Below, piece after piece: positions 36,427 to 52,345 of a stretch of 64,000 nucleotides of DNA. The stretch covers positions 3,272-67,271 of the forward strand of contig CAZYRT010000001.1 of NCBI GenBank assembly GCA_964650045.1, given 5' to 3'. This stretch comes from an uncultured Ruminococcus sp. (lineage in GTDB: Bacteria > Bacillota > Clostridia > Oscillospirales > CAG-382). The first letter of the stretch is position 1. Every line of letters starts with the position of its first letter. A program made the position numbers and the translations under genes. The notes beneath the pieces were generated by a model. That model was not told the DNA's origin and did not search any database. It was given only the letters and a program-made list of their open reading frames with translations.

Positions 36427-37281
36427 TTAAGGCTGTTTACAGCTTTCCAAAAATTCCAAAAGCCTTGGAATAGCATTTCTTCCATCGGATGCGCCTCTGT
36501 CATAGGTTGCTTGGATACGTTCAGGGTCATGCTCAAGCCTTGCGGCAGGGAGAGGAGAATCGGGTCGGATAATGAAAATATCGCCGTTTTTCTCTAATTC
36601 CAAAAGTGATTCAACCGTTTTGTTATAAACCTCTGCACGTCTTTCCATGGCTTCGACAAACTTTGGATATTTTCGGTAGATAAGCTTGGAGAAAAGCTTG
36701 GATTCGGGCTTTTTAACATAATCTGCAGGTCTGGTCAACACAACAACATTCTTTTCAAATCCCATTTTGCGGAATTGATGAATGGGTATTGCATCACAGC
36801 AACCGCCGTCCAGATATTTTTTGTTGCCTATCTCCACAATTCTCGAAAAATAGGGGAGAGATGCCGACGCACGCAAAAAATCGATTTCGGCAAGCATATC
36901 GGTTATTTGGAGATATTCGGCTTCACCTGTTTCCACATTGCTTACTACAACATAAAAGGGAGTTTTGTTGACTTTGAAGCCCTCGTAATCATAAACATCA
37001 AGCTTTTCGGGGAGCTGGTGATAGGAAAATTCCACTTCCACAATGTCCCCTGTCTTAATCCAGCTTTTCAGGCTCATAAAACGTGGATCGGCACAATAAT
37101 TACGGTAGTAACGGATGCTTCTGCCCTTTTGTCCCGAAAGGTAGGAGCATCCGTGGACTGCTCCTGCGGAAACTCCTATCAATCCGTCAAAGGTGATTCC
37201 GTTTTCCATGAAAACGTCTAAAACACCTGCTGTATATATTCCGCGGAAGCCTCCGCCCTCTAAAACAATTCCTGTTTTCAA
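36427..37281 (-). CDS. Patatin-like phospholipase
   Basis: Oxyanion GGGFRG, nucleophile elbow GVSAG, and Asp of the dyad in LDGG. Confidence 0.85.
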   Translation of the reverse strand: MKTGIVLEGGGFRGIYTAGVLDVFMENGITFDGLIGVSAGAVHGCSYLSGQKGRSIRYYRNYCADPRFMSLKSWIKTGDIVEVEFSYHQLPEKLDVYDYEGFKVNKTPFYVVVSNVETGEAEYLQITDMLAEIDFLRASASLPYFSRIVEIGNKKYLDGGCCDAIPIHQFRKMGFEKNVVVLTRPADYVKKPESKLFSKLIYRKYPKFVEAMERRAEVYNKTVESLLELEKNGDIFIIRPDSPLPAARLEHDPERIQATYDRGASDGRNAIPRLLEFLESCKQP

Positions 37282-37302: not shown

Positions 37303-39651
37303 TTACTTTTTCTTGGATTTGAGAATAAGGATAACTGCAACCGCGATTACAACAACTGCAACTGCTACAATAATGATAACGATGGTATTGCTGCCGTTAT
37401 CTTCATCAGCTTGGCTGTTATCGGCAGATTGTGTATTTTCGGATACAGTTGCTTCAACAGAGCTTTCTGCTTCCTGAAAAACGGTTCCTTCTTCGGAAGA
37501 TTCGGGCTCTTGAGAGGAAACCTCCTGCTGAACAGGCTCCTTCATGGGAAGATTTTCGTCCAAAGCTATCTCTATCTCATCTGCCCAGAGGAAATTGCCG
37601 TTTATGGTAAGAGTGAGCTTGATATATCGGTAATCGTTGAGATAATCGCTTTTTACTGTAAGGGAATGGAGGGTGCTTTGATCGGAGTCAACGGCATCGC
37701 CGTTACCCAAATTTGCAACCTCTTGGGTTTCACCGATAGGGAAGAAGCTTTCCTTGTCATTTGAGCCTTCAACCGAAATGCCTGCGCAAGAAGCAACACC
37801 CCAGAAGCCTGCAGAAGTATAAACTGTGTAGGAATTGGATTTTGCGCCTTCGCCAAGGTCAAATACAACGGTCACCTTATCTGATTGGTCCTTTTTCCAT
37901 GCGGAATAGGCATTTGTTAAAACACCGCTGTTGGATTTCAAGCCGTCGGACAGACGCACACCGTCATCGTGAAGAAGCTTTGTATCAGCCCAATAGCTGT
38001 AATTTTTCTCGGCGGTAACCTCATAAGATGCGCCAACAGAAATTATTTGATATTTAGAAAGAGCCAAAGCATCGGAGATTGCGGTTATTGCATTTTTAAT
38101 TGTTTCTCCGTCTGCATCATCTGCAGAAACCAAGGCTTTGCCGTTGTCCAATGCGGTTGTAAGGGTAGAATAATCCTCGGCAGCATAGTGAGCTTCATCA
38201 GCCTTTTCTCCTTGGGTGATAACATCCGAAAGAACAGCCTTTAAATCAAGACCCGAAAGGGCTTTTTTCAATTCGCCTTGGGTAGGTGTATCATCGGAAA
38301 GAACCTTTTCTGCGTATACAATTGCATTTTTTAGGTTAATATCGTCGGTTTTGATTTCTTTTGCGTTTTGGAGAGAGGACTCCAATTCAGTCTTCAATTC
38401 ATCGTCGGAAAGAGAGGATTTCTTTACAATGAGAAGGGTATCGCAAACCATACGTCCGTTTTCCTCGGGACGTTCGGCAAGATAAACGATTCCGTTTGTT
38501 TCGGTGTAAACTGCGCTTGATCCGCCGCCGTCAAGACGGATAACGTCGGTACAGCCCATTTGTATCATTGCCGCGGCAACATCCTTGAGGGTGAGACCGT
38601 ATTCTTCATTAACAAAGTAAACGAAGGTGCCATCGGCTTTAACACCGAATGCCGTCCATGCTCTTTCTAATGTAACGCTGTGGATAATGGTGCTGTTTTT
38701 GTTTGTTTGGTCAACACCGTCTTTTACAAGCCAATATGCGCTGCTTATTGCGCTATAGGCATTTTCCAATTCGGTAACATAGCCCTGAGCTTCGGCTCCT
38801 ATTTCAACCGAATCTCCTTCCTTCAATCCGCTAACAGCAGTTGCATAGGGCGAATCAGTCTTTACGAAAAGGATAAATTGGCTGTCATTTTCGGGAATCG
38901 TTGCGCCAAAGGTGGATTCAGAGACCGAAACAACCTTACCTTTAAGAGTTCTTCCGACTGCGATTTCGGTGTTGTCCAGTTTATCGCAAAGAATTTCGTA
39001 ACCGCTTATATCGGATTTCGCGATGGGCGAATAGCAATTTAGTACATGGCGGTCATAATAGAAAAATTCGCCTAATTTTGAAGATGTGGAGGACTTTCCT
39101 TCAATATATGTATATTTCTTGTTTACAGAAACAAGGCTTCCTGTTTCCTCTCCGTTGAGAGAGACGGGATATTTAATGGAAGGGTTGCTTACATGGCTCA
39201 TAACGCCCTTTGCATCAAAGCAAGCCAAGGCTTCCATTGCTCCCGAATCACCGATTATTATTCTGCCGTTGGATATAAGCATACCTGTCATTGTGCTGGT
39301 GGCACCCTGGAAGAAAGAGCCGTTTATTGCGCCCACGACCTCATATCCTTCGTCAGCGGCATAATTCATGTGCTTTTCCATGAATGTAACTCCGCCTGCT
39401 GTGCCTGTAAAGGCGAGAGGGATATTACCGTCCGCAGGAGAAAATTCGAAAACATAGGATCTTGCGCTGTCTTCGCAAACGCTTCCTGTTATATCATAGG
39501 TAGTGAAAAGTGTGTTGTTAGAGAGAGTTTCGGAGGAAACTGTAGAAAATTCAACTGTTGCAGTTTGAGTCTCTGCAAAAACAGTTATTCCCAAGGATAA
39601 TACTACCGATACTACGGTCAACACAGAAATAAAGCTTCTAAAAGCCTTCAT
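37303..39651 (-). CDS. Surface protein paralog 1: phosphodiester glycosidase (NAGPA/DUF2233-like), FIVAR-like helices, discoidin-like domain, C-terminal TM anchor
   Basis: ATG 39651 after GAGGAG; the track start is TTG. Signal peptide. AINGSFF and IRLDGGGSSAVY motifs. FIVAR-like ...TQGELKKALSGL. YRYIKLTL...FLWADEIEI. C-terminal IVIIIVAVAVVVIAVAVILILKSKKK. Confidence 0.6.
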   Translation of the reverse strand: MKAFRSFISVLTVVSVVLSLGITVFAETQTATVEFSTVSSETLSNNTLFTTYDITGSVCEDSARSYVFEFSPADGNIPLAFTGTAGGVTFMEKHMNYAADEGYEVVGAINGSFFQGATSTMTGMLISNGRIIIGDSGAMEALACFDAKGVMSHVSNPSIKYPVSLNGEETGSLVSVNKKYTYIEGKSSTSSKLGEFFYYDRHVLNCYSPIAKSDISGYEILCDKLDNTEIAVGRTLKGKVVSVSESTFGATIPENDSQFILFVKTDSPYATAVSGLKEGDSVEIGAEAQGYVTELENAYSAISSAYWLVKDGVDQTNKNSTIIHSVTLERAWTAFGVKADGTFVYFVNEEYGLTLKDVAAAMIQMGCTDVIRLDGGGSSAVYTETNGIVYLAERPEENGRMVCDTLLIVKKSSLSDDELKTELESSLQNAKEIKTDDINLKNAIVYAEKVLSDDTPTQGELKKALSGLDLKAVLSDVITQGEKADEAHYAAEDYSTLTTALDNGKALVSADDADGETIKNAITAISDALALSKYQIISVGASYEVTAEKNYSYWADTKLLHDDGVRLSDGLKSNSGVLTNAYSAWKKDQSDKVTVVFDLGEGAKSNSYTVYTSAGFWGVASCAGISVEGSNDKESFFPIGETQEVANLGNGDAVDSDQSTLHSLTVKSDYLNDYRYIKLTLTINGNFLWADEIEIALDENLPMKEPVQQEVSSQEPESSEEGTVFQEAESSVEATVSENTQSADNSQADEDNGSNTIVIIIVAVAVVVIAVAVILILKSKKK

Positions 39652-39688
39652 GATAATCAACTCCTCATTTTAATTTATTATCATGTTC

Positions 39689-39717
39689 ATTATACAAAAT
39701 ACCTAAATATCTGTCAA
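39689..39717 (-). promoter_or_regulatory. Candidate promoter of paralog 1
   Basis: On the minus strand: TTGACA, 17 nt, TATAAT, about 35 nt upstream of the ATG. Confidence 0.55.
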
Positions 39718-39724
39718 TCCTTTT

Positions 39725-39777
39725 TTTAGTTCCTGCAATGTACTAACCAATATGCATTACACATATTCCGCGAGTGG
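39725..39777 (+). repeat. R2 repeat, copy C
   Basis: TTTAGTTCCTGCAATGTACTAACCAATATGCATTACACATATTCCGCGAGTGG. Confidence 0.75.
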
Positions 39778-39863
39778 ATTAAAGACAACAAGCCTCTTAC
39801 CCATACATTTGAAAATTTACCGATTCGCGTAGTAAGGTTTAATAAAAAATTTTGATTAGGGTA

Positions 39864-39892
39864 TTGCAAAGTTGCAAAAATAATAGTATAAT
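39864..39892 (+). promoter_or_regulatory. Candidate promoter of the yerC-like gene
   Basis: TTGCAA (39864-39869), 17-nt spacer, TATAAT (39887-39892). Confidence 0.55.
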
Positions 39893-39933
39893 AGTTTAAC
39901 ATATTAAAGTATAAAACTATCAGGAGGAAAAAT

Positions 39934-40221
39934 ATGATAGATAAGATAAAGGATTCCACAACAGACAAGCTTGCCGAAGCGTTTGTCAGCGTTCGTACAG
40001 TTGAAGAGGCTTATCGTTTTCTCAGCGACCTTTGCACCATTTCCGAAATTACCGAAATGAGCAAGCGTTTGACTGCGGCAGAAATGCTTCGCGAGGGCAA
40101 TACATATAACGAAATTGCAGAAAAGACTCATCTTTCCACAGCTACCATTACCAGAGTAAACCGCGCACTTCGCTACGGAAGCGACGGTTATTCTATGGTT
40201 CTTGACAGAATTTCGGAATGA
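39934..40221 (+). CDS. yerC: TrpR-related YerC/YecD family protein
   Basis: 95 aa. ...LSDLCTISEITEMSKRL..A..L..G.TYNEIAEKT..STATITRVNRALRYG matches the YerC/YecD family. Confidence 0.8.
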   Translation: MIDKIKDSTTDKLAEAFVSVRTVEEAYRFLSDLCTISEITEMSKRLTAAEMLREGNTYNEIAEKTHLSTATITRVNRALRYGSDGYSMVLDRISE

Positions 40222-40943
40222 GCTTCTTTGCAATATCCGAGCTTTATGACCAAATAAACGGAAGCTCTTATGCACCTTATGCGGATTTTTTGGCTTCGGC
40301 TTTTGAAAAAGCTGATATTAAGGTAAACGAGGTTTTGGACCTTGGCTGCGGTACAGGCGGGATCTGCGCCCTTCTTGCAGACAAAGGGTATGATATGATC
40401 GGGCTGGATGCTTCTCCCGAAATGCTTAATATAGCAATGGAGAAGAATTTCGGCAAAAATACTCTTTTGCTTTGTCAGGATATGCGCGAGTTTGAATTGT
40501 ACGGAACGGTTCAAGGAGTATATTCATCCTTTGATTGCCTTAATTATTTAACTGAAAAGGGCGATTTGGAAAAGGTTTTTGCCTTGGTGCATAATTATCT
40601 TGAACCCGGCGGTATTTTTGTTTTTGATGTTAACACCGAATACCGCTATCGGAATGTTCTTGACGGAAAGAGCTATGTTTATGATTTTGACGGTGCTTTT
40701 GCCGTTTGGCGAAGTGCATTTTCCGAAAGTGACGGTCTTTGTGAATTTACTATAGATTTATTTACCGAGGACTCTGACGGTCTTTATTCAAGAGACGGAG
40801 AAACCCAGCTTCAAAAGCTTCATAAGCCCAAAGATATCGAAAATGCCGCGAAAGGCTTTGCTCTTCTGGAGAAATCGGGAGGCAAGGGCTTTGACGGTTG
40901 TACTCAAGACGAAAAGGTTTATTATATCTTCAAAAAAATATAA
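40218..40943 (+). CDS. Class I SAM-dependent methyltransferase
   Basis: ATGA overlap with the yerC-like gene. SAM motif I is VLDLGCGTG. Confidence 0.8.
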   Translation: MSFFAISELYDQINGSSYAPYADFLASAFEKADIKVNEVLDLGCGTGGICALLADKGYDMIGLDASPEMLNIAMEKNFGKNTLLLCQDMREFELYGTVQGVYSSFDCLNYLTEKGDLEKVFALVHNYLEPGGIFVFDVNTEYRYRNVLDGKSYVYDFDGAFAVWRSAFSESDGLCEFTIDLFTEDSDGLYSRDGETQLQKLHKPKDIENAAKGFALLEKSGGKGFDGCTQDEKVYYIFKKI

Positions 40944-40949
40944 TCACCG

Positions 40950-40980
40950 GTTGTGCCTTGTCGATAAGATAAGGCATAAC
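40950..40980 (+). terminator. Terminator-like hairpin after the methyltransferase gene
   Basis: GTTGTGCCTT-loop-AAGGCATAAC 10-bp stem (one G-U pair), followed by a T-rich tract. Confidence 0.55.
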
Positions 40981-41053
40981 TAATTTATATGGAAATTTAT
41001 AGAAAAATTAAGAAAGGAGCAGCAAGTGTAAAGCGCTTGTATGTAGCTTTAAA

Positions 41054-41908
41054 ATGAAAATCAGTGAAATTATAAAAAGCAAGGAAATAACAGTTTCCTG
41101 TGAAGTGTTTCCCCCAAAGCTGGGAACAGAATTGGAGCAAAGCCGAAAGATAGTTTCGGATATGGCAAAGCTCAAGCCCGATTTTATCAGCGTTACATAC
41201 GGTGCTGCAGGTTCAACTGCTAAATTTACAGCAGAGTTGGCTGATGAGGTGGAAAAGAACGGAATCGCCGCATTGGCTCATGTTACCTGCGTTTCTTCCG
41301 ACGAGGAAAGCCTTGATGAATATTTGAGTTCTCTTAAATCTCATGGAATCGAGAATATTCTCGCTTTGCGCGGAGATATGCCCCAAGGCAGAGATCCGAA
41401 AAGGGTTTATGCCCATGCAAGTGACCTTGCTGCGGCGATTAAGGAAAAGGGTGATTTTTGTATAGGCGGCGCTTGCTATCCCGAGGGGCATCCCGAGGCT
41501 GTCAGCGTAAGCGCGGATATTGATGCTTTGAAGATAAAAGCCGAAAGCGGTTGCGAATTTTTCACCACACAGATGTTTTTTGATAACGATATAATGTATT
41601 CCTTTATGACCAAATTCCAAAGAAAGGGCATTAATATCCCCGTTATTGCAGGTATAATGCCCATAACCAATGCTAAACAGCTTGGCAGAAGCGTTTCTCT
41701 TTCGGGAACAATGGTTCCCAGAAGATTCAGAGAAATCGTGGAGCGCTTTGGAGACAAGCCCGAGGCTATGCGTCAGGCGGGAATTGCTTTTGCAACTGAG
41801 CAGATAATCGACCTTATTGCAAACGGTGTTAATAATATTCATATTTATGCTATGAATAAGCCCGATGTGGCGGCGGCAATTTTAAATAATATTTCGGCTA
41901 TACGTTAA
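41054..41908 (+). CDS. metF: 5,10-methylenetetrahydrofolate reductase
   Basis: 284 aa. ...SCEVFPPK..., ALRGD, and a typical MTHFR TIM-barrel pattern. Confidence 0.9.
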   Translation: MKISEIIKSKEITVSCEVFPPKLGTELEQSRKIVSDMAKLKPDFISVTYGAAGSTAKFTAELADEVEKNGIAALAHVTCVSSDEESLDEYLSSLKSHGIENILALRGDMPQGRDPKRVYAHASDLAAAIKEKGDFCIGGACYPEGHPEAVSVSADIDALKIKAESGCEFFTTQMFFDNDIMYSFMTKFQRKGINIPVIAGIMPITNAKQLGRSVSLSGTMVPRRFREIVERFGDKPEAMRQAGIAFATEQIIDLIANGVNNIHIYAMNKPDVAAAILNNISAIR

Positions 41909-41922
41909 AAAGGAGCTCTTTT

Positions 41923-44298
41923 ATGAGTGAATTCAAGAATATTTTATCTGCCTTAAATGGCGAAGGACGTCCCTTGGTTGTTGACGGTGCAATGGGAACC
42001 ATGCTTCAGAGTATGGGATTAAAGCCGGGTGCTCTTACCGAAACCATGAATACTCTTGACCCATCTTCGGTTATGGCGGTACACAAAGCATATATCGAGT
42101 CAGGCGCCGATATTATTACCACAAACAGTTTCAGTTCTAACAGCGTGAAGCTTTCTCCCTATAGAATGAACCCGAGGGAAGAAATGTTAAAGGCGGTTAA
42201 AATAGCCAAGGAAGCGGCAGGCTATGGTCAAAGAAAGGTTTTTGTGGCAGCGGATCTTGGGCCCACGGGCAAATTGATGCCTCCCTTGGGAGATTTTGAA
42301 TTTGAGGATGCGGTAAATGCATTTAAGCCTGCTGTGGCTGCTGCCGAAGAAGCAGGGGCGGATTTGGTATTTTTCGAAACCTTTTCCGACCTTTATGAGT
42401 GTAAGGCGGCGGTTATTGCCGCAAGAGAGGTTTCCTCCCTTCCTGTTGCGGTTTCATTGACCTTTGACGAAAGCGGAAGAACTCTAACAGGAGCCGATGC
42501 AGAAACAGCGGCTATCTATCTTTCCCGTTTGGGTGTAGATGCTATCGGTATAAATTGCGGCTTAGGCCCCGATGCTATGGAGCCTATAGCCATAGCGTTA
42601 GCAAAATTCAGCGGACTTCCTGTTATAGTAAACGCAAATGCAGGTCTGCCCAAAATAAATGAAAACGGAGAAACTTACTTTGATGTAAGCCCCGAAAGAT
42701 TCCTAAGCTTTGCCAAAAAGCTTGGAGAAAACGGAATCAGATGTATCGGCGGATGCTGCGGTACAACCCCCGAATATATCGAACAGGTTGCTAAGGGTGT
42801 AAATAATTGTGATTATAAAAAGGTATCATCAACAGAAAAGCGAGTTTCGGTTTGCTCGGGCACAAGAATGTTCACCTTTGGTGGAAAAACTGCGGTTATC
42901 GGTGAAAGACTTAATCCTACGGGCAAATCCAAATTAAAAGAGGCTTTGCGTACCGGCGACATGGATTATCTTTGTGCCGAGGCTGTTTCTCAGCAGGGGG
43001 CAGGTGCGGATATTCTTGACGTTAATGTTGGTATTCCCGAAATAAATGAGGTAGAAATGCTTCCTAAGGCTGTTTTGGCGATACAAAAGGTAACCGACCT
43101 TCCTCTCCAATTGGATTCTGCCGACCCCGATGCATTGGAAGCTGCGGCGAGAGTTTACAACGGTATTCCTATAATCAATTCGGTTAACGGAAAAAAAGAA
43201 AACCTTCAAAAGGTGCTTCCCATAGTTAAAAAATACGGCGCAGTTTGCGTTGGTCTGCTTTTGGATGAGGAGGGAATCCCCGATTCGCCTAAAGAAAGAT
43301 TGGAAATTGCCGAAAAAATAAGAGAAACCGCGGAAAATGATTTTTCGTTCACTCCCGATTTTCTCTTTGATGCTCTGACCTTAACGGTTGCCACCGATGA
43401 AAAAAGCGGTGAAAAAACCCTCGAATGTGTAGAAAGCCTTTCGAATCAAGGCTTTATGACGGTTTTGGGCGTTTCCAATATTTCCTTTGGTATGCCGAAC
43501 CGCGATGCTATTAATGCTTCATTCCTCGGTGCGGCTATGTCGAGAGGGCTTTCGGCGGCGATTATCAATCCTTCCAGCGAAAACATGAGGCTGGTAATTA
43601 ACGACCCTTCGCCAAATCCGGATTTTGTTTTCTCTAATGAGCCTGCCGAAGCGGTTCAATCTGTATCTGAAAAAAAGGAAATGACGCTTTTTGATGCCGT
43701 TTATTCGGGACTTTCCAAAAAATCGGCAGAATGCGCAAAAGTTCTTCTTTCCCAGTTCAAGCCCTTGGAGGTTATTGAAAATCATCTTGTGCCTGCATTA
43801 AATGCTTTGGGCGAGGATTATGAGGCGAAAAAGCTGTTCCTTCCCCGACTTTTGGGCGGTGCCGAAGCGGCAAAAGCAGCATTTAAGGTTATAAATGAAT
43901 CTCTTTCGGGTGAAAAGACCCAAAAGGGTATGAAGATAGTTATAGCAACAGTAAAGGGCGATATCCATGATATCGGAAAAAATATTGTGGCAACGCTTCT
44001 TTCCAATTACGGCTTCGATGTTATTGACTTGGGCAAGGATGTTGCCCCTCAGGCAATCGTTGATGCCGCAATAGCAAACAACGCGAAAATCGTTGGCTTG
44101 AGCGCATTGATGACAACTACAGTTCCTGCAATGGCAGAAACTATCAAGCTTATTAAAGAGCAATGCCACGAGGTTAAAACAATGGTAGGCGGCGCGGTTC
44201 TTACTCAGGACTATGCTGACACAATGGGCGCAGATTTCTATGGCGTTGACGCAATGGCATCTGTCCGCTACGCTCTTTCTTTAATTCCCGCGATGTAG
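41923..44298 (+). CDS. metH: Cobalamin-dependent methionine synthase (Hcy, pterin and B12 domains; no activation domain)
   Basis: Hcy S-methyltransferase GGCCGTTPE. Pterin-binding region. B12 motif GDIHDIGKNIV. Ends after the B12 domain at 791 aa. Confidence 0.9.
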   Translation: MSEFKNILSALNGEGRPLVVDGAMGTMLQSMGLKPGALTETMNTLDPSSVMAVHKAYIESGADIITTNSFSSNSVKLSPYRMNPREEMLKAVKIAKEAAGYGQRKVFVAADLGPTGKLMPPLGDFEFEDAVNAFKPAVAAAEEAGADLVFFETFSDLYECKAAVIAAREVSSLPVAVSLTFDESGRTLTGADAETAAIYLSRLGVDAIGINCGLGPDAMEPIAIALAKFSGLPVIVNANAGLPKINENGETYFDVSPERFLSFAKKLGENGIRCIGGCCGTTPEYIEQVAKGVNNCDYKKVSSTEKRVSVCSGTRMFTFGGKTAVIGERLNPTGKSKLKEALRTGDMDYLCAEAVSQQGAGADILDVNVGIPEINEVEMLPKAVLAIQKVTDLPLQLDSADPDALEAAARVYNGIPIINSVNGKKENLQKVLPIVKKYGAVCVGLLLDEEGIPDSPKERLEIAEKIRETAENDFSFTPDFLFDALTLTVATDEKSGEKTLECVESLSNQGFMTVLGVSNISFGMPNRDAINASFLGAAMSRGLSAAIINPSSENMRLVINDPSPNPDFVFSNEPAEAVQSVSEKKEMTLFDAVYSGLSKKSAECAKVLLSQFKPLEVIENHLVPALNALGEDYEAKKLFLPRLLGGAEAAKAAFKVINESLSGEKTQKGMKIVIATVKGDIHDIGKNIVATLLSNYGFDVIDLGKDVAPQAIVDAAIANNAKIVGLSALMTTTVPAMAETIKLIKEQCHEVKTMVGGAVLTQDYADTMGADFYGVDAMASVRYALSLIPAM

Positions 44299-44331
44299 TT
44301 TGTTCAAATTGTTATCGCTCATTCGCGTGAG
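44281..44331 (+). repeat. R2-related repeat, copy F (E/F subfamily), overlapping the metH stop
   Basis: TTAATTCCCGCGATGTAG...CGCTCATTCGCGTGAG. It is flanked by the direct repeats TGTAGTTTGTTCAAATTG and TGTAGTTTGCTCAAATCG. Confidence 0.6.
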
Positions 44332-44376
44332 CTGTAGTTTGCTCAAATCGAAAATATTACATCTTTACAACACAAA

Positions 44377-44402
44377 AAGACCATCGGTTTTCCGATGGTC
44401 TT
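44377..44402. terminator. Bidirectional terminator (metH / paralog 2)
   Basis: AAGACCATCGG-TTTT-CCGATGGTCTT is a perfect 11-bp stem flanked by A and T runs. Confidence 0.85.
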
Positions 44403-44418
44403 GATTTGTTTATAAGCC

Positions 44419-46743
44419 TTATGCGAAAATAGACTTTTTAAGCATGAAATAGTCGATAGCGGTCAATTTGCCGTCGCCGTTCATGTCGCAACGTGCAAAC
44501 GCGTTATCGGGATCCTTCAAGGAGCTGACGGAAATAACGTTCATAACTACTTTTTTGAGAATCAAATAGTCTGTTGCGGTCATTTTACCGTCGTTATTTA
44601 CGTCGCCCACGCCCTGAGAAATAACAGGAGTGTCACTTTCGGGAAGAAGTGTGCCGTTAAGAGCCGCTTCAACCTCATCAAGCCAGAGGAACGCGCCGTT
44701 GGAATATGCGGCAAATCTGATATAACGGTAATTCTGAACATCCTCGCTGACAACAGTCATTTTGGAAAGCTCGGTGATAACTCCGTCTATGGGAATGCCT
44801 TCGCCAACCTTAACCAATGTATCGGTATATCCGATCTCGGTAAAGTTAACACCGTCGTTAGAACCGGAAACATTCAACCAATAGGGAGGATTAACGCCCC
44901 ATTGCTTGCTTGCAGAATAGATGTTATAGGTATTGGTCTGAACATTTGCGCCAAGGTCAACGATAACCTCAACATATTCGATGCTGCCCACATTCTTATT
45001 AAACGCAGAATAGGTGGAGGAGAAGGGATCCGAGGTGCTCTTAAAGCCATCGGTAAGACGGATTTCGTCGTCAAAGAGGGAGCTTCCGTTTTGATAGGTA
45101 TAATCGGAATCGCTTGCGGTGTAGCTTGCACCGATAGATACTATTGAAAATTCGGAAAGGGAAAGAGCATCCGAAAGCTCACTGATAGAATTTGCATATT
45201 GGGTCTGGGTAGCGGAAGCATTCGCCAAAACCTTGTTTGCATTTTCAATGGCAGTCCGGAGTATAGAATAATTGCTGTCGCGGTAGTGTGTGGAGTCCTC
45301 TGCTTCAGCCTGTGCAACAAGCTTGGTAAGAACATTGTTGAGAGAAAGGGCAGAAAGGAGCTTTTTAACATCGCCGTCGGAAGGATAAGTTTCTTTAAGA
45401 AGAGCTTCTGCCTTTGCGATATTTGTTTTAAGCTCTGCATCGGGCTTTTCAACTGTTTTTGCTGTTGCAACAGCAGCTTCAAGCTCGGCTGCAAGGTCTT
45501 CGTCATAGGTGCTTTCTTTGGAAACTACCAAAAGAACATCACAGATGGGACGTCCGCTTGTATACTGTGTTGTTTCAGCAAGGTAAACAACGCCGTCGGT
45601 TTCGTTATACATAGCGCTGGATCCGCCGCCGTCCAAGCGATAAACGTGGATACAGCCCAATTCGATCATTGCCGCGGCAACATCCTTAAGCGTGAGACCG
45701 TATTCTTCATTAATGAAGTAGACAAAGGAACCGTCTTCCTTAACGCCGAAGGCTGTCCAAGCACGGCTGAGGCTGACGCTGTGTGTACCGATCTGAGATT
45801 GGGTATTTGTTTGGTCAACACCGTCTTTTACAAGTGCATAGCAGGAGGAGATAGCGCTGTAAGCATTATTCATAGCTTCCTTTGCGGCACTATTCTGTTC
45901 ATCAACAGAAATAGAAATGATATCGCCTGCGGAAAGACCTGTTGCATAGGATACCTTATTGGAAGCTGCAGGCATAAAGAGGGTGAAATATTGATGTTCG
46001 GTAGGACGGTTTGCGCCGTAAGTAGCTTCGGTAACCGAAATTACTCTGCCTTTCAAGGTGTGACCGACCGAAAGCTCACTGTCATCAAGCTTTTCGCAGA
46101 GTATTTCGTAGCCTTCAACAGTACCGGAAACACCGGATTTTGCATAAGCATCATAATAGAAGAAACGGTTAACGAAATCAGAATTTCTTCCCAAAACATA
46201 GGAATACTTTTTGTTAACGGAAGCCAATGCACTTACAAGCTTTTCGCCGTTTATTTCTACAGTATAGGAAAGATTGGTAAGAGCATGGGTAAATTCGCCG
46301 TTGGAGGAGAAGATGCCCACAGATTCACCTGCACAAGCGGCATCGGCAGCGATGATTCTTCCGCCGGAAATATTGATACCGCACATATTAACACCGTTGA
46401 AGAAGGAGCCGTTTATTGCGCCGATAACATGATAGCCTTCGGCATTAGCCTGATTAACATGTGTGCTGAAAAAAGGGAGGTTTGCACCGCCGTATGCGGC
46501 ATAAGCTAAGGGAATAGCGCCATCGGCAGGGTCAAATTCCAAAACATAGGATGTGGAAGTCTTTCCGCTGTCGGAACCGTAAATGCTGTAGGTTGAATAG
46601 GTTGCGGAATTGCTCAAGGTTTTTGAGGTAGAGGTGTTTTTGGTCAATTCCACGGTAGAGGTAGCCGCATTGGCTATCACACAGGAGGACACAAGCATTA
46701 CTGCCATAACCAAAAGAGCAATCAATCGTTTTGCACTTTTCAT
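44419..46743 (-). CDS. Surface protein paralog 2: phosphodiester glycosidase-like, FIVAR-like, discoidin-like domain, type I dockerin
   Basis: Signal peptide. AINGSFF and YRLDGGGSSAMY. YRYIRFAAYSNGAFLWLDEVE. C-terminal dockerin pair GDVNNDGKMTATDYLILKK...CDMNGDGKLTAIDYFMLKK. Confidence 0.65.
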   Translation of the reverse strand: MKSAKRLIALLVMAVMLVSSCVIANAATSTVELTKNTSTSKTLSNSATYSTYSIYGSDSGKTSTSYVLEFDPADGAIPLAYAAYGGANLPFFSTHVNQANAEGYHVIGAINGSFFNGVNMCGINISGGRIIAADAACAGESVGIFSSNGEFTHALTNLSYTVEINGEKLVSALASVNKKYSYVLGRNSDFVNRFFYYDAYAKSGVSGTVEGYEILCEKLDDSELSVGHTLKGRVISVTEATYGANRPTEHQYFTLFMPAASNKVSYATGLSAGDIISISVDEQNSAAKEAMNNAYSAISSCYALVKDGVDQTNTQSQIGTHSVSLSRAWTAFGVKEDGSFVYFINEEYGLTLKDVAAAMIELGCIHVYRLDGGGSSAMYNETDGVVYLAETTQYTSGRPICDVLLVVSKESTYDEDLAAELEAAVATAKTVEKPDAELKTNIAKAEALLKETYPSDGDVKKLLSALSLNNVLTKLVAQAEAEDSTHYRDSNYSILRTAIENANKVLANASATQTQYANSISELSDALSLSEFSIVSIGASYTASDSDYTYQNGSSLFDDEIRLTDGFKSTSDPFSSTYSAFNKNVGSIEYVEVIVDLGANVQTNTYNIYSASKQWGVNPPYWLNVSGSNDGVNFTEIGYTDTLVKVGEGIPIDGVITELSKMTVVSEDVQNYRYIRFAAYSNGAFLWLDEVEAALNGTLLPESDTPVISQGVGDVNNDGKMTATDYLILKKVVMNVISVSSLKDPDNAFARCDMNGDGKLTAIDYFMLKKSIFA

Positions 46744-46820
46744 AATTTATCTCCTTAATAATTTTGTTCTTGAAATATTATATAAGATTAATAATTTTAT
46801 GTCAACAATTCAATAAACTT

Positions 46821-47405
46821 TTATATTTCATCTTTTTGCCATTGTGGCAGTATGCCCAATTCCTTGAGAATGGGATAAAGCCCTGCTACAGGAAGCCCGA
46901 TTATGTTATAAAAATCGCCTTGGAAATGCTCCGCAAAAAGACTTGCCTTTTCCTGAATACCGTAGGCTCCTGCTTTGTCCATAGGCTCTCCTGTGGCGAT
47001 ATAATGCTTTATTTCTTCGTCCTCAAGGTTTCGGAATTTCACTTTGCTTTCACATGAAAATTCCCGTATTCCCTTTTGAGATATAACGCAACAGCCTGTT
47101 ATCACCGAATGATAGGTTCCCGAAAGTCTTTTCAGCATATCAAAAGCATCAGTTTCATCCTTGGGTTTGCCGAAAATATTGTTTTCCACACAAACCACAG
47201 TATCGGCACCTATAACAACACAATCATCTCCTAAACGGGAAAATACCTCTTGGGATTTGGCTCTTGCATTACAAACAGCCAGCTCCGACGGAGCCATTCC
47301 TTGGGTGATCTCATCAGCATCCGAGGGAACTGCATTATATTCATAGCCTGCCAAGGTCAAAAGCTCACGTCTTCTGGGAGAATTTGAAGCGAGAATTAAT
47401 TTCAT
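46821..47405 (-). CDS. maf: Maf-like nucleoside triphosphate pyrophosphatase
   Basis: MKLILASNSPRRRELL...; GAYGIQ. ATG at 47405. Confidence 0.9.
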   Translation of the reverse strand: MKLILASNSPRRRELLTLAGYEYNAVPSDADEITQGMAPSELAVCNARAKSQEVFSRLGDDCVVIGADTVVCVENNIFGKPKDETDAFDMLKRLSGTYHSVITGCCVISQKGIREFSCESKVKFRNLEDEEIKHYIATGEPMDKAGAYGIQEKASLFAEHFQGDFYNIIGLPVAGLYPILKELGILPQWQKDEI

Positions 47406-47500
47406 TACATTGCTCCTTTTTTGGGAAAACACTTGATTATTCTAACGCATTTCATTATAATAACAAATTGATAATATGTAAATAGCGCAGGTAGGAAAAA

Positions 47501-48298
47501 ATGAAAATATCCACAGAAAACATAAAAAGAGTTGTGGTAAAAATAGGAACCTCTACTCTTACACACAACTCGGGTTTTATTAATATTCGCAAGATAAACA
47601 AGCTTATCGAAGCTCTTGCCGACCTTCACAACAGCGGAAAGGAAATTGTTTTTGTGTCCTCGGGCGCAGTTGCATGCGGTCTTGCGAAAATAGGCTTTTC
47701 CAGAGATACATTAACAACAGAGCAAAAGCAGGCTGCCGCCGCTGTGGGTCAATGCCAGCTTATCGATATGTATGCCCGCGGTTTTGCCGATTACGGCGCA
47801 ACGATTGCTCAGATACTCATTACAAGAAGCGTTATTGATGACCGTGAGCTTCGCGCTCATGCCAGCACAACCTTGGAAACGCTCCTTGCTCAGGGGATCA
47901 TTCCTATTGTTAATGAAAATGATACTATTTCCAATGAGCAGATCAAGATAGGAAGTAACGATACTCTTGCGGCAACCGTTGCAAGGCTTTCCAATGCAGA
48001 CCTGCTTATCAATATGTCGGATATCGACGGTCTTTATGATTCCGACCCCAGAAAGAACCCCGATGCAAAATTCATCGAATTTGTGCCCGAGGTTTCCGAT
48101 GAGGTTTATTCTTATGGTACTGGCGCAGGTACATCAAGAGGTACCGGCGGAATGGCAACAAAGCTTGAAAGCGCAAAATATGTTACCGAGCGCGGAATCC
48201 CCATGATAATCGTAAACGGTGCCGATACATCGATACTTTACGATATTTTTGACGGTGAATTTAAGGGAACCTATTTCGCCGCCAAGAATGTAAAATAA
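47501..48298 (+). CDS. proB: Glutamate 5-kinase (no PUA domain)
   Basis: VVKIGTSTLT..., VSSGAV, NENDT, and a GTGGM motif. Confidence 0.9.
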   Translation: MKISTENIKRVVVKIGTSTLTHNSGFINIRKINKLIEALADLHNSGKEIVFVSSGAVACGLAKIGFSRDTLTTEQKQAAAAVGQCQLIDMYARGFADYGATIAQILITRSVIDDRELRAHASTTLETLLAQGIIPIVNENDTISNEQIKIGSNDTLAATVARLSNADLLINMSDIDGLYDSDPRKNPDAKFIEFVPEVSDEVYSYGTGAGTSRGTGGMATKLESAKYVTERGIPMIIVNGADTSILYDIFDGEFKGTYFAAKNVK

Positions 48299-48994
48299 TT
48301 ATTTAAGAGTATTTTCTGTAGTCAGGAATTTAATGGAGCGTTCCACCGAATCCTTGGATTCACCCCAAGGGAGAGAATCGAATCGGTAATCAAATTTTTT
48401 GCAGAAAAGGGACACATCATCCTTAAGGCTGTTTAAATATACCGTTACCTTTTCGTTAGCTGCTTTTACAAATTCGGCATAATTTTCCTTTGTTAATGCG
48501 TTCTTTGCGGCAATAACATATTCACGGTAATGGGGCAGACAAAAATAGCGAACCTCTGAAAAAGATTGACGGAAATCCTTTTCTTCTGCATAAAGCTTTG
48601 ATGCGGTGGAAAGCATTTTTGAAAATTTATCCTCGATTCTTTCACAGATATAGCAATGTTCATTTAATCTTCCGATTCTTTCAACGCTTTTTGCGCCAAT
48701 GTCTTTGGAGAAAAAGTTCCCTGTTTTGATTTCCTTTTTCAGGGATTCAAGATGGCTTTCCAGCATAAGGGCAAGTTCAAGACGGTGCTTCATGCCGTAC
48801 ATCTTCTGAAAATGCTCGGCACAGAAGCCCTTTTCGTTGGTTTCGCTTCTTATATCGGGTTCCATCATAGATGCACCCAAAATTATTTCCAATTCGTCCT
48901 TTTCCAGCTTTTCTTTCAAAGCGCAAAAGGGACAGCGGGTTTTGTGCTGTTCAAAGGCTTCGGTAACGGGAATCGTATAAATATGTTCTTTCAT
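48299..48994 (-). CDS. Cys-rich hypothetical protein (two CxxC motifs)
   Basis: 231 aa with CPFC and CYIC motifs plus conserved-looking CAEH and CLPH. Its stop abuts the proB stop with zero spacing. Confidence 0.5.
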   Translation of the reverse strand: MKEHIYTIPVTEAFEQHKTRCPFCALKEKLEKDELEIILGASMMEPDIRSETNEKGFCAEHFQKMYGMKHRLELALMLESHLESLKKEIKTGNFFSKDIGAKSVERIGRLNEHCYICERIEDKFSKMLSTASKLYAEEKDFRQSFSEVRYFCLPHYREYVIAAKNALTKENYAEFVKAANEKVTVYLNSLKDDVSLFCKKFDYRFDSLPWGESKDSVERSIKFLTTENTLK

Positions 48995-49064
48995 TGCGGC
49001 TCCTTAACTTTTATTGGATTCATTATACATTATTTCTACCTAAAATACAAGAGGCATAAATTCT

Positions 49065-49904
49065 ATGAAACTCACTCAGCAGGGAAACGATTTGATATTA
49101 TCCGAAATCTCAAATTTCGACCCTTTTGTGTCTGCGGAATGCGGTCAATGCTTTCGGTTTGAGAAAATCAGCGAAGATGAATATTTTTTAATAGCCTGCA
49201 ACAGAGGTCTTAATGTAAAAAGGCTTTCCGACGGTTGGCTTTTTGCCGATATGAGCGAAGCGGAATTTAACGAAGGCTTTGTTTCCTATTTTGATTTGGA
49301 AAGAGATTACGGAAAAATAATCCAAGGCTTTTCCTTTGATGAAAATATTTCAAGAGGGGCAAAAGCAGGAAACGGAATAAGAATATTCCGCCAAGACCCT
49401 TGGGAAACACTTATATCCTTCATTATTTCTCAAAATAACAATATCCCCAGAATCAAAAAAATAATTTCTTCACTTTGTGCTCTCCTCGGTCAAAAGATTG
49501 CTGACGGTGTTTATTCCTTCCCCTCGGCAGAATGTATTTTAGACGCAGGATTGGAAGGCATTGCACCGATAAAAAGCGGGTTCCGCGGAAAATACATAAT
49601 CGATGCGGCAGAAAAGGTGGTTTCCAAGGAAATCGACCTTGACGAAATCGCGAACGTGGGATATGAAAAAGCATTGGAAAAGCTGAAAACCATAAAAGGT
49701 GTGGGCGATAAGGTTGCAAATTGCGTTCTCCTTTTCGGGTTCGGTTATTATAATGCCTTCCCTGTTGACGTTTGGGTAAAGAGGGTTATAGAAAAATACT
49801 ATGGCGGTTCCTTTGACTCGAAAGCATTGGGAGAATATGCAGGCATTGCTCAGCAATATCTTTTCCATTATGAAAGAAATATGACTAATAAACAAGACGT
49901 CTGA
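49065..49904 (+). CDS. ogg: 8-oxoguanine DNA glycosylase / AP lyase (OGG, HhH-GPD)
   Basis: ECGQCFRF N-domain. WETLISFIISQNNNIPRI. HhH-GPD loop IKGVGDKVANCVLLFG...PVDVW. Confidence 0.8.
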   Translation: MKLTQQGNDLILSEISNFDPFVSAECGQCFRFEKISEDEYFLIACNRGLNVKRLSDGWLFADMSEAEFNEGFVSYFDLERDYGKIIQGFSFDENISRGAKAGNGIRIFRQDPWETLISFIISQNNNIPRIKKIISSLCALLGQKIADGVYSFPSAECILDAGLEGIAPIKSGFRGKYIIDAAEKVVSKEIDLDEIANVGYEKALEKLKTIKGVGDKVANCVLLFGFGYYNAFPVDVWVKRVIEKYYGGSFDSKALGEYAGIAQQYLFHYERNMTNKQDV

Positions 49905-50020
49905 TACAAATCTGGCGTCTTATTTTTGTGTAATGTTCACAAAAAAACACAGAATCATTGACATAAAGAAATAAATTTTGTATAATGTACGAAGAAAAAT
50001 ACAATAAGGAGAAAAGTTTA

Positions 50021-52345
50021 ATGAAAATCACCAAAAGATTTCTTGCTCTTGGTCTGGTCGTTCTTATGCTGTTTTCAACATGTGTGGTTGCTAATGCAGC
50101 AAGCGGAAGCGCTACCTTGACCAAGGGAAGCACCTACACTATCGACAATGCAGTGTACTATTCTACTTATACTGTAAAAGGTACAAGTGCAAGTACAACT
50201 GCTCACGTTCTTGAATTTAATCCCGATGACGGTTATGTTCCCATGGCGTTCACCGGCGCGGCAGGTGACGTTCTTTCCGTTTCCGAGCAATATGCTGCGG
50301 CTGTTGCTCAGGGTTATGAGGTTGCAGGCGTTATCAACGGTTCCTTCTTTGATATGAACCGCGGTTCCTTGAACCAGGTTTTGATCAGTGAAGGAAGATT
50401 GATTTCCGCTGATATAAGCAATAGCGTAGGCGAAGTTGCTACCTTTGACACAGAAGGTAACATGGGTCACGGCTATAGCGTTCTTCATTTCGATATAACC
50501 TTTAACGGCACAACAGTTAAGGATTCCCTTGTTTCGGTTAACAAGAGATATCAATATATTGCCAATGCAAGCTCAACAAAGAGTTACACAGATCGTTTCT
50601 TCTATTATGACAGCAAGGTTGGAAGCGATGGATATTACGGCTTCACCAGCACCTCTGCAAACGGCTACGAAATTCTTTGTGAAAAGCTTGATTATACCGA
50701 AATCGCTGTAGGCAAGACCTTGAAGGCAAAGGTTATCAGCGTAAGCTCCGGCAGAAATTACGGTACCACAATTCCCACAAGCGATAATCAGTTTGTTCTT
50801 TTTGTAAAGAGCAGCTCTTCTTATGCATCCTATGCATCCAGCCTTTCCGCAGGCGCCTCTATCACCGTTTATTCCTACGAATCCAGCTCTACTCAGGCGA
50901 TGAACGATGCATATTCCACAATGAGTTCTGCTTATTACCTTGTTCAGAACGGTGTTGACAAATGTGCATCTTCTTCAAGCATCGGCGGACACAGCGTTAA
51001 CAGCTATGGAAGACCTTGGACTGCATTCGGTCAAAAGGCAGACGGTTCTTTTGTATATTTCATTTCCACAGGCGAAAAGATCGACCTTGCGGATGTTTCT
51101 GCAGCTATGATAAAGCTTGGCTGTGTAAATGTTATCCGTCTTGACGGCGGCGGATCCACCGCTATGTATGTAAACGGCAAGGGCTCTGTTTACACTCAGG
51201 GCAGAGATGTTGCCGATGCTCTTCTTATCGTAAAGAAATCCAGCCTTGAAGATACCGCTCTTACTGCAAAATTGGAAGAATCTGTTGCTCTTGCAAAGAC
51301 AATTTCCAATCCTACTGCTGAAATTTCCGCGGCAATCACCGAAGCTGACGCAGTTTTGGCAAACGCTTATCCTGCAAAGGGTCTTGTTAAGGTAGCTCTT
51401 TCCAAGGTTAACAACAAGGCAATACTTGGCAATCTTATTTCTCAGGCACAATCCGAATCCTCCTCTCACTATTCTACTGAGGATTACGCGACACTTCAAA
51501 CTGCTATCACCAACGGTAACAGTGTTTTGAATAATTCAAGTGCTACCGATGCACAAGTTTCTTCTGCTATCACTCAGCTTACTTCTGCTCTTGAGCTTTC
51601 CAATTATAATATGCTTTCCACAGGCAAATCCTACACAGTAGGCGGAGCAACAGCTTACACCGCTGATACAACCGATGACGGTGTGCGTTTGACAGACGGT
51701 GCTAAATGCAGTCTTGATCCCTTGACTTCTGATTATTCTGCATGGAAAGGCAATTATATTGATGACGGCGCAGGCGGAAAATATCAGACAATCACCGTTG
51801 ATTTGGGCGAATCCACCGTTTCCAATGTTTACAAGATCTATATGGCAAGCAACTTCTGGGGTGTTTCCGCTTCCGGATTCGTAAGTGTTTGGGGTTGTAA
51901 CACCAAAGACGGCACTTATACTCTTATCGGTTACGATGAAAGTCTTGAACAGGAAGCATCAGGTGTTTGTGCTTCTGTAGATAATTCCACAGTTATATCC
52001 TCTTCTATGACTATCTCCAGCGAAACAGCGCAGAATTACCGTTATATCAGATTCAATGTTTACCCCGGCGGATCCTTCCTTTGGGTAGATGAAGTTGAAG
52101 TAATTCGTGACGATTCTCTCCTTCCCGAAGAAGAACCTGCTCCTGCAACAGGCGTGGGCGACGTAAACAATGACGGCAAATTGACCGCGACCGACTATTT
52201 GATGCTCAAGAAAGTGGTTATGGACGTTATTTCCGTCAGCTCCTTGAAGGACCCCGACAACGCGTTTGCACGCTGTGACTATAACGGCGACGGCAAATTG
52301 ACCGCTATCGACTACTTCATGCTTAAAAAGGCTATGTTTGCATAA
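50021..52345 (+). CDS. Surface protein paralog 3: phosphodiester glycosidase-like, FIVAR-like, discoidin-like domain, type I dockerin
   Basis: ATG 50021 after AAGGAG. Signal peptide. VINGSFF and IRLDGGGSTAMY. YRYIRFNVYPGGSFLWVDEVE. Dockerin GDVNNDGKLTATDYLMLKK...CDYNGDGKLTAIDYFMLKK. Confidence 0.65.
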   Translation: MKITKRFLALGLVVLMLFSTCVVANAASGSATLTKGSTYTIDNAVYYSTYTVKGTSASTTAHVLEFNPDDGYVPMAFTGAAGDVLSVSEQYAAAVAQGYEVAGVINGSFFDMNRGSLNQVLISEGRLISADISNSVGEVATFDTEGNMGHGYSVLHFDITFNGTTVKDSLVSVNKRYQYIANASSTKSYTDRFFYYDSKVGSDGYYGFTSTSANGYEILCEKLDYTEIAVGKTLKAKVISVSSGRNYGTTIPTSDNQFVLFVKSSSSYASYASSLSAGASITVYSYESSSTQAMNDAYSTMSSAYYLVQNGVDKCASSSSIGGHSVNSYGRPWTAFGQKADGSFVYFISTGEKIDLADVSAAMIKLGCVNVIRLDGGGSTAMYVNGKGSVYTQGRDVADALLIVKKSSLEDTALTAKLEESVALAKTISNPTAEISAAITEADAVLANAYPAKGLVKVALSKVNNKAILGNLISQAQSESSSHYSTEDYATLQTAITNGNSVLNNSSATDAQVSSAITQLTSALELSNYNMLSTGKSYTVGGATAYTADTTDDGVRLTDGAKCSLDPLTSDYSAWKGNYIDDGAGGKYQTITVDLGESTVSNVYKIYMASNFWGVSASGFVSVWGCNTKDGTYTLIGYDESLEQEASGVCASVDNSTVISSSMTISSETAQNYRYIRFNVYPGGSFLWVDEVEVIRDDSLLPEEEPAPATGVGDVNNDGKLTATDYLMLKKVVMDVISVSSLKDPDNAFARCDYNGDGKLTAIDYFMLKKAMFA

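Follow-up and report, generated by a model that had tools for sequence, protein, structure and literature searches.

A 64,000-nucleotide stretch of DNA from an uncultured Ruminococcus sp. (contig CAZYRT010000001.1, positions 3,272 to 67,271; hereafter the window, numbered from its first letter) carries three paralogous genes, P1, P2 and P3, whose products join a catalytic domain of the NAGPA/DUF2233 type to a helical spacer, a CBM32-like β-sandwich and one of two C-terminal anchors. On balance, and with modest confidence, we propose that these proteins are surface-displayed sugar-1-phosphate phosphodiester glycosidases that act on teichoic-acid-like wall glycopolymers. P1 (37303..39651, minus strand; Pfam NAGPA match, 2e-19) encodes a 782-residue protein with a C-terminal membrane anchor, with a helical region between the catalytic domain and the sandwich. 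P2 (44419..46743, minus strand), downstream of maf, and P3 (50021..52345, plus strand), downstream of ogg, each encode 774 residues ending in a dockerin, with a helical spacer in P2 and a FIVAR-like one in P3. The three open reading frames (ORFs) and their common architecture are as an initial annotation of the sequence had described them, and its assignment of the domains (NAGPA/DUF2233, FIVAR-like, β-sandwich and dockerin) is borne out by hidden Markov model, profile and fold evidence, which agree. The proteins align end to end, with whole-protein identities of 43% (P1/P2), 41% (P1/P3) and 49% (P2/P3). In the catalytic core, identity is 61% for P1/P2 and 52–55% for the other pairs, in keeping with the earlier view that the P1 and P2 cores are very similar and that P3 is more diverged. 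To call them the same enzyme in membrane-tethered or cohesin-docked form, as had been done, captures the exchange of anchors but overstates the likeness of paralogs that are just 41–49% identical. All three N-termini carry a signal peptide, with a K/R-rich region, a hydrophobic stretch and an A-x-A sequence visible in the translations.

The catalytic domain occupies approximately residues 30–412 in both P1 (38416..39564, minus strand), where the alignment includes INGSFF and RLDGGGSSA, and P2 (45508..46656, minus strand), where the second motif contains D371-G-G-G-S375. Against a cut-off of 25 bits, Pfam NAGPA (PF09992) scores 70.9, 57.6 and 67.6 bits in P1, P2 and P3, respectively. A family profile built from 62 homologs, P1–P3 included, matches vertebrate NAGPA structures (3e-12 for 6pku) and the bacterial DUF2233 structure 3OHG (2.8e-8). 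With an AlphaFold model of P2 (predicted local distance difference test score, 89; predicted TM-score, 0.71), a Foldseek search matched residues ~30–410 to 5h3k and 6ozd at ~1e-17, to 3ohg at 3.4e-12 with a TM-score on target of 0.68, and to the catalytic domains of NAGPA (6pkg and 6pku) at 1e-7 to 5e-9. The predicted structure has the three-subdomain α/β fold of 3OHG and 6PKU. The INGSFF and RLDGGGS motifs of the paralogs align with NGGFF and NLDGGGS of guinea-pig NAGPA, although the bacterial domain has ~110 more residues between the two motifs than the vertebrate enzyme. In human NAGPA the DGGGS loop (D286–S290) is strictly invariant and essential (PMC13474241). The same loop is invariant across the 62 aligned homologs, as are N111, D198, H321, R369, R398 and D402 (P2 numbering), and because these polar residues are kept throughout, the catalytic machinery looks intact in all three paralogs. 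The invariant R398 sits 23 residues past S375, the phosphate-binding R316 of the human enzyme 26 residues past the equivalent serine, and the sequence alignment to 6pku ends before R398. The DNA of the P1 and P2 cores also holds a direct repeat of 189 nucleotides (38473–38661 and 45574–45762; 79% identity, against ~54% gene-wide), with a third-position identity of 55% against 39% elsewhere, which could be caused by strong constraint or by an older conversion tract.

Next to the catalytic domain, P2 has a helical region (45163..45507, minus strand; ~residues 413–527) in which the secondary structure of the model comprises six helices, the second three-helix unit being FIVAR-like. Pfam FIVAR scores in P3 only, at 27.0 bits against a cut-off of 29.2, and finds no match in P1 or P2; the 62-homolog profile matches the FIVAR–dockerin pair of Clostridium perfringens NagH (2jnk) at 6e-5. 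FIVAR-like is thus a fair label. The CBM32- or discoidin-like sandwich that follows (P2 residues 528–700; 44644..45162, minus strand) is assigned by Foldseek and profile matches. Among the window paralogs, Pfam F5_F8_type_C scores only in P1 and below threshold (17.6 against 28.2 bits), and most homologs of P1–P3 carry this domain, PF00754. The family profile matches the C-terminal region of BT0459 (6q63 residues 624–773) at 2.7e-11, and Foldseek matches the modelled P2 sandwich to CBM32 modules with TM-scores on target of 0.6–0.77, among them those of C. perfringens GH89 and GH84 enzymes and of GH29 fucosidases.

An exhaustive phmmer search of 1.84 billion representative proteins returned just 107 relatives of the P2 sandwich, 100 of which were covered by Pfam scans. 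Dockerin_1 occurs in 61 of these 100 proteins and PF00754 scores in 71. Their catalytic partners are GDPD (13 proteins), GH25 (12), GDSL/SGNH (11), NAGPA (9, a count that leaves out seven NAGPA sandwich relatives already known and not rescanned) and CHAP (8), followed by Peptidase_C39_2 (3), DUF4434 (3) and Metallophos (2); the weakest matches are unrelated discoidin proteins. Where a dockerin is present, the relatives carry wall-hydrolase domains and not GH5, GH9, GH48 or GH13. The metagenome-assembled genome (MAG) SGB_554, from which the related locus L001 derives, encodes a 790-residue protein (L002, 8062–10434) in which GH25 is joined to a FIVAR-like region, a P2-like sandwich (34% over 225 residues, E value 2e-22), one extra domain and a dockerin that shares 89% identity with the P2 dockerin. 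Near NAGPA homologs in other contigs lie genes for a CHAP–dockerin protein (L009, 1140–2357) and for a 968-residue calcineurin-like phosphoesterase (Metallophos) with a dockerin (L011, 2110–5016).

The glycan strands of peptidoglycan are cut by GH25 enzymes and its peptides by CHAP enzymes, SGNH enzymes remove O-acetyl groups and GDPD enzymes cut the backbones of teichoic acids; sugar-1-phosphate links occur in some teichoic acids and in the N-acetylglucosamine (GlcNAc)-1-phosphate linkage unit to N-acetylmuramic acid. It is because close relatives of the sandwich carry these four domains that we propose a wall target for P1–P3, by association. A comparative analysis found that NAGPA co-occurs with cell-wall-binding and NlpC/P60 domains in Bacillota (PMC12419801), and comparative papers also describe its fusion to TelC and to extracellular calcineurin-like domains. 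Together, the module associations point to cell-wall hydrolases, and the cellulosome or amylosome frame in which the dockerins had first been placed is probably the wrong context.

The dockerins of P2 (44422..44613, minus strand; Pfam Dockerin_1, 2.7e-13) and P3 (52151..52342, plus strand, within the second arm of an inverted repeat) both span residues 711–774 and are of type I. They score 50.3 and 48.1 bits, respectively, against a cut-off of 22.9, and P1 has no match. What the initial annotation took for a dockerin pair is a single module with two calcium-binding DxNxDGxxxxxD repeats, which in P2 read DVNNDGKMTATD and DMNGDGKLTAID. In P2 and P3 the repeats are near-symmetrical, with TA(T/I)DY..LKK in both. 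The P1 protein ends with an acidic Ser/Glu/Gln-rich linker (~residues 700–756), a transmembrane (TM) helix of 21 hydrophobic residues (757–777; 37321..37383, minus strand) and, directly after it, the basic tail KSKKK (37306–37320, minus strand). This tail had been recognised before, and its linker–TM–KSKKK-type design is kept in the P1 orthologs P0007–P0010. A sortase (LPXTG) or other sorting signal was considered for it and rejected, as the sequence holds no LPXTG-type motif and matches no NCBIfam sorting-signal model.

A neighbour-joining tree of the protein bodies resolves three clades, P3-type (dockerin), P2-type (dockerin) and P1-type (TM). Since P1 is sister to the dockerin-bearing P2, and P3, which falls outside the pair, and most of the outgroups also bear dockerins, the TM anchor of P1 is on this tree derived, its tail having replaced a dockerin. 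Across the wider NAGPA family, TM (acidic linker, helix, basic end), dockerin, choline-binding-repeat and SLH tails alternate. Anchor swapping therefore appears to be a habit of the family, and the idea of swapped anchoring modules put forward earlier finds support in both the tree and the alternating tails. Two further features of the termini were observed. A G(G/S)NT motif directly precedes the C-terminal TM helix in P1 (37384–37395, residues 753–756) and in P0007, P0010, P0070 and P0075; these TM-anchored proteins come from different clades, and the motif, which matches no known sorting signal, may cap the helix or mark a kind of processing not yet recognised. At the other end, the signal peptide of P2 (46666–46743) has a cysteine, residue 21, in the lipobox-like context L-V-S-S-C ahead of an A-N-A signal-peptidase I site. 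A cysteine in such a context recurs in many dockerin-type homologs of P2, the P1 signal peptide has none and P3 has F-S-T-C. With a weak NCBIfam lipoprotein match (E value 0.006), P2 may undergo lipoprotein processing.

The longest and most similar DNA repeat of the region is an inverted pair of 195 nucleotides (44419–44613 and 52151–52345; 89% identity) that corresponds exactly to the dockerin-coding DNA of P2 and P3, whose bodies are only ~54% identical. At third codon positions the dockerins are 75% identical and the bodies 41%, and identical residues are encoded by identical codons in 78% of cases against 55%. The similarity begins near the first dockerin codon, and the downstream terminator stem is 85% identical over 34 nucleotides. 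Within a genome, the P2 and P3 dockerins are 89% identical at the nucleotide level in the window, 88% in the JAZSFY MAG and 86% in GCA_052844235 (JAZXSP). Orthologous dockerins of the window and JAZSFY are 80–86% identical; between the window and GCA_052844235, dockerins are only ~60% identical in nucleotides (~50% in amino acids) even though the protein bodies are 65–69% identical. For this reason the dockerins seem to track the genome and not the gene. The pattern suggests that gene conversion, or repeated module replacement, keeps the cargo proteins matched to one cohesin.

The paralogs are interleaved with housekeeping genes, as had been noted. Between P1 and P2 lie genes for a SAM methyltransferase, MTHFR and MetH (40218..44298, plus strand), which separate the P1 and P2 orthologs at locus L013 too. 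Between P2 and P3 lie maf (46821–47432, minus), an amino-acid kinase gene (47501–48298, plus), a DUF6062 gene (48299–48994, minus) and ogg (49065–49904, plus). Related loci come from MAGs labelled ‘Eubacteriales bacterium’ and ‘Clostridia bacterium’, animal-gut samples among them. The named matches to the GyrB protein of the window are likewise all unclassified Clostridia or Firmicutes MAGs, the best at 93% identity, with no cultured relative among them. In JAZSFY010000208 (L001) the order is VTC, DUF4956, Cthe_2159, P3 ortholog, ogg, DUF6062, kinase, maf and P2 ortholog, and in JAZOKD010000031 (L013) it is ogg, DUF6062, kinase, maf, P2 ortholog, MetH, MTHFR, methyltransferase and P1 ortholog. 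Because the ortholog order recurs in these two, we regard P1–P3 as true, old paralogs. Three similar genes within 15 kb might by themselves have raised the suspicion of an assembly artefact or of recent duplicate copies, but the chance of either is negligible: the proteins are 41–49% and their genes ~54% identical, the flanks of P1, P2 and P3 differ, and the arrangement is found in independent assemblies.

Neighbours from the P2–P3 block (46821..49904) also flank homologs in L001, L005, L007–L010 and L013, and maf followed by a NAGPA–dockerin gene is seen in seven contexts, down to 34% identity. The adjacency holds for homologs that are 34–38% identical (P0023, P0017, P0032 and P0055) and also in JAZXSP. 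One homolog context is ordered DUF6062, ogg, maf and NAGPA; in one, the NAGPA gene adjoins jag, yidC, rnpA and dnaA. In the window, dnaA, dnaN, recF, gyrB and gyrA occupy 10.4–20.4 kb, and GC content and GC skew change at 20–22 kb, which places the paralogs 17–30 kb from the origin. The pair of maf and a NAGPA–dockerin gene thus appears to be an old, conserved position, near oriC here and in one relative. The simplest history would start from one core gene downstream of maf, with a local inverted duplication placing one copy after maf (P2) and another after ogg (P3), and P1 arising from a second duplication; one dockerin would then have been exchanged for a TM helix, with the other two dockerins kept alike by gene conversion.

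Each paralog is preceded by a perfect σ70 consensus promoter (TTGACA-17-TATAAT), at 39689..39717 (minus strand) for P1, 46777..46805 (minus strand) for P2 and 49958..49986 (plus strand) for P3. The window contains four such sites where 0.02 would be expected, and three of the four are these. A perfect site also lies 35–60 nucleotides upstream of orthologs or homologs at L001 (both genes), L005, L007, L009 and L012. The start codons at 39651, 46743 and 50021 each follow an AAGGAG/GAGGAG site and lie ~35 nucleotides downstream of the promoter; use of the starts of the longer mechanical ORFs (TTG 39660 and ATG 49985) is unlikely, and in P3 position 50021 is favoured because ATG 49985 falls within the -10 box. 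Terminator hairpins are predicted after P2 (44377..44402, minus strand) and P3 (52363..52394, plus strand) and are homologous to one another. From these signals we infer that P1–P3 are independently and strongly transcribed.

If it works as its vertebrate counterpart does, the catalytic domain would cleave the glycosidic C–O bond of a sugar-1-phosphate diester, releasing the free sugar and leaving a phosphomonoester on the polymer. The FIVAR-like spacer and the CBM32-like sandwich would keep the catalytic domain clear of the anchor and direct it towards a glycan. P1 would be retained by its C-terminal TM helix, and P2 and P3 by binding of their dockerins to a cohesin-bearing surface protein whose gene would lie in another part of the genome. 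The likeliest substrates would be Gram-positive wall glycopolymers, either of the teichoic-acid type with sugar-1-phosphate links or through the GlcNAc-1-phosphate linkage unit, attacked together with other dockerin-borne enzymes that share the sandwich module, namely muramidases, CHAP peptidases, SGNH esterases and GDPD phosphodiesterases. The wall in question could be the cell's own, in remodelling, or a foreign one, in scavenging or antagonism. A more ambitious version, which is conceivable though doubtful, has the cohesin–dockerin system here assembling a cell-wall-degrading complex of GH25, CHAP, SGNH, GDPD and NAGPA enzymes, directed by one CBM32-like targeting module and digesting other Gram-positive bacteria for food or in antagonism.

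Several points weigh against the proposal of a wall-polymer glycosidase. The searched literature contains no bacterial NAGPA-family enzyme of known substrate, which makes extrapolations of both the activity and the wall substrate, and the residues by which the vertebrate enzyme recognises GlcNAc (human E226/T227) have no confident mapping onto the paralogs. The module argument is one of guilt by association, in which the partner proteins come from unannotated metagenomes whose relatedness is not established. No cohesin was found in the window by Pfam scans of all ORFs of at least 150 residues, nor by a lenient repeat for the unannotated ORFs and a 1836-residue S8 protein. Promoter strength is read from the consensus match alone, and the third-position identity of the dockerins indicates more recent shared ancestry, as a pattern and not as a formal test of gene conversion.

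A further point, that CBM32 and FIVAR modules are best known from the host-glycan-degrading enzymes of C. perfringens, leads to a different substrate: host or dietary glycans, degraded in a mucinolysome-like or other nutrient-harvesting cohesin–dockerin complex, with CBM32 recognising Gal, GalNAc or GlcNAc, whether carried by mucins or by phosphoglycans of eukaryotes (for instance yeast phosphomannan, those of protozoa or the GlcNAc-P-Man of glycoproteins). This would agree with the sandwich matches to C. perfringens GH89 and GH84 and to GH29 fucosidases, the profile match to the NagH FIVAR–dockerin pair, the dockerin-based mucin-degrading complexes described in gut Clostridia MAGs (PMC12997984), the MucBP domains in 4 of the 55 sandwich relatives of one scan batch, and the strong predicted promoters, which suit a nutrient-acquisition enzyme. 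We nevertheless consider it unlikely: mucin glycans lack sugar-1-phosphate diesters, the close sandwich relatives are joined to GH25, CHAP, GDPD and SGNH domains and not to mucin-active GH families, and the gene sits at a conserved core-genome position by maf, outside a carbohydrate-utilisation cluster. The polymer might also be one that the cell makes for itself, with P1–P3 trimming or releasing a sugar-phosphate exopolysaccharide or capsule at the surface. Core-gene status, strong predicted promoters and the family-wide anchoring by TM helices, dockerins, SLH domains or choline-binding repeats would all fit a role at the self-envelope. However, no exopolysaccharide or capsule biosynthesis genes adjoin any of the ten contexts examined, and the older label that this idea follows, COG4632 (‘exopolysaccharide biosynthesis protein related to the uncovering enzyme’), is not experimental; we judge it decidedly improbable as a separate reading, and it overlaps the own-wall branch of our proposal, from which it differs mainly in the polymer cut. 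Lastly, three abundant-looking paralogs with lectin-like modules, in a family whose bacterial members have no known activity in the searched literature, could be mainly adhesive or structural surface proteins, with a NAGPA-like domain that binds a ligand but is no longer catalytic. Retention of DGGGS and the other invariant polar residues in all 62 homologs, as purifying selection on an active site would give, makes this very improbable.

Vertebrate NAGPA (the uncovering enzyme, EC 3.1.4.45) and BACOVA_00430 (PDB 3OHG) share their Pfam family, fold and NG(S/G)FF and DGGGS motifs with P1–P3, at sequence identities below ~20%. Human NAGPA is a type I membrane protein with its catalytic head on a stalk, a C-terminal TM helix and a short cytoplasmic tail (PMC13474241), and P1, as predicted from its sequence, is likewise of type I, its catalytic head standing on a stalk above a C-terminal TM helix with a short cytoplasmic tail; P2 and P3 use a dockerin where the vertebrate protein has the helix. 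The stalk is helical and CBM32-like in the paralogs and EGF-like in the vertebrate protein, and the ~110-residue insertion in the catalytic domain, absent from vertebrate NAGPA, is shared with 5h3k and 6ozd. Unlike vertebrate NAGPA, the paralogs have no evident propeptide or furin-type control, and the lysosomal-enzyme tag on which that enzyme acts cannot be their substrate.

In their ancillary modules, P1–P3 resemble the GH84/GH89-type modular enzymes of C. perfringens (NagH, NagJ and CpGH89), which carry CBM32, FIVAR and dockerin or cohesin (X82) modules: in both groups a CBM32-like sandwich, a FIVAR-like bundle and a type I dockerin accompany a secreted glycan-cleaving domain outside a cellulosome. 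They differ in that the catalytic domain here is NAGPA and not a CAZy glycoside hydrolase family, in module order, with FIVAR ahead of the sandwich, and in a sandwich drawn from a small wall-hydrolase-associated subgroup. The cellulosome of Ruminococcus champanellensis is reported, in a secondary citation, to include a GH25-fused ScaK and an SGNH-fused ScaH (Morais et al. 2016, cited in PMC13463774). GH25 and SGNH are two of the catalytic families that share the sandwich and dockerin here, but ScaK and ScaH are scaffoldin fusions in a fibre-degrading cellulosome, and neither plant-fibre enzymes nor a scaffoldin are evident in this window. Other surface NAGPA proteins of Bacillota, fused to SLH domains, choline-binding repeats or TelC and NlpC/P60, similarly pair the catalytic family with interchangeable anchoring or wall-binding modules; P1–P3 differ from them in their dockerin or TM anchors and triplicated core locus, and are not polymorphic, conflict-type proteins.

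Cohesin–dockerin systems that do not act on fibre are an active topic, with the amylosome (PMC4611034) and the mucinolysome (PMC12997984) as examples. In the literature searched, we found no paper that joins a dockerin with ‘phosphodiester glycosidase’, DUF2233, PF09992 or the full name of the enzyme, none containing ‘phosphodiester glycosidase’ that gives a substrate for a bacterial member, and no report of NAGPA, of GDPD phosphodiester-cleaving partners or of the shared CBM32-like module in cohesin–dockerin systems. Neither NAGPA nor the related MAG accessions appear in the supplementary files of the study on the Limousia mucinolysome. Within that scope, the claim that dockerin-borne phosphodiester glycosidases are undescribed stands, apart from the cellulosomal or amylosomal setting in which it had been made. 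The architecture is nonetheless common in databases: NAGPA and Dockerin_1 occur together in at least 74 of 120 listed homolog clusters, several of them automatically named ‘phosphodiester glycosidase family protein’. One homolog, P0001, matches P2 at 100%, and an exact-sequence look-up found no record of it. P1–P3 thus belong to a known enzyme family and combine known modules in new, uncharacterised architectures; what we add is their conserved core locus, their consensus promoters, the apparent concerted evolution of their dockerins and the association of their sandwich with a dockerin-borne wall-hydrolase set.

Other features of the window were also noted. On its minus strand, the origin region (10473–25071) comprises gyrA, gyrB, recF, dnaN and dnaA; yidC and jag/khpB lie on the plus strand. 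At 20–22 kb its GC content falls to 0.33 and the GC skew changes sign. Directly upstream of dnaA is a gene for a 536-residue membrane protein (20533–22143, plus strand) that weakly matches PMT_2, which is glycosyltransferase 39-like. The fourth perfect consensus promoter (20552–20580) falls just within its mechanical GTG start, so the true start is probably further downstream. A patatin/DUF6363 phospholipase gene (36427–37281, minus strand) begins 22 nucleotides past the P1 stop and is probably co-transcribed with P1; the single-copy homolog at L008 also neighbours such a gene, in the opposite orientation. Adjoining P3 is a trio of genes for a Cthe_2159-domain protein (596 residues), DUF4956 and a VTC-domain protein (52640–55852, minus strand), which is also found by the P3 ortholog in a related MAG (L001, 931–4110). 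At 57091–63682 (plus strand), a gene encodes a 1836-residue S8 subtilase with an internal dockerin (residues 1389–1444) and a C-terminal cadherin-like domain. This dockerin is of a different type, ~30% identical to that of P2 and P3, and the subtilase gene is followed by an overlapping one for a 363-residue GH25 muramidase. The initial annotation had also seen a discoidin-like motif in a DUF4340-like protein (5211–7667, plus strand), encoded downstream of ABC transporter genes and an ABC_transp_aux gene. Its residues ~440–535 match the sandwich profile weakly (hhalign probability 75%, E value 2.5e-5), and a BLASTP comparison of the protein with P2 found no similarity, which leaves the motif as a weak profile match.

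As core, position-conserved and apparently strongly promoted genes that are triplicated with two kinds of anchor, P1–P3 offer a good entry point to the substrate of bacterial NAGPA/DUF2233 proteins, and a rare shared module ties them to enzymes of known wall-cleaving chemistry. The homogenisation of their dockerins provides a clear small example of module-level concerted evolution, in which several cargo proteins would be kept matched to one cohesin. Should they act on wall polymers, phosphodiester-glycosidase activity would join that of the known wall hydrolases, and the roles of cohesin–dockerin systems would widen beyond cellulose, starch and mucin. If, furthermore, they do belong to a wall-degrading complex, they would become the first NAGPA enzymes from bacteria to which a class of substrate, polymers of the teichoic-acid type, could be assigned.

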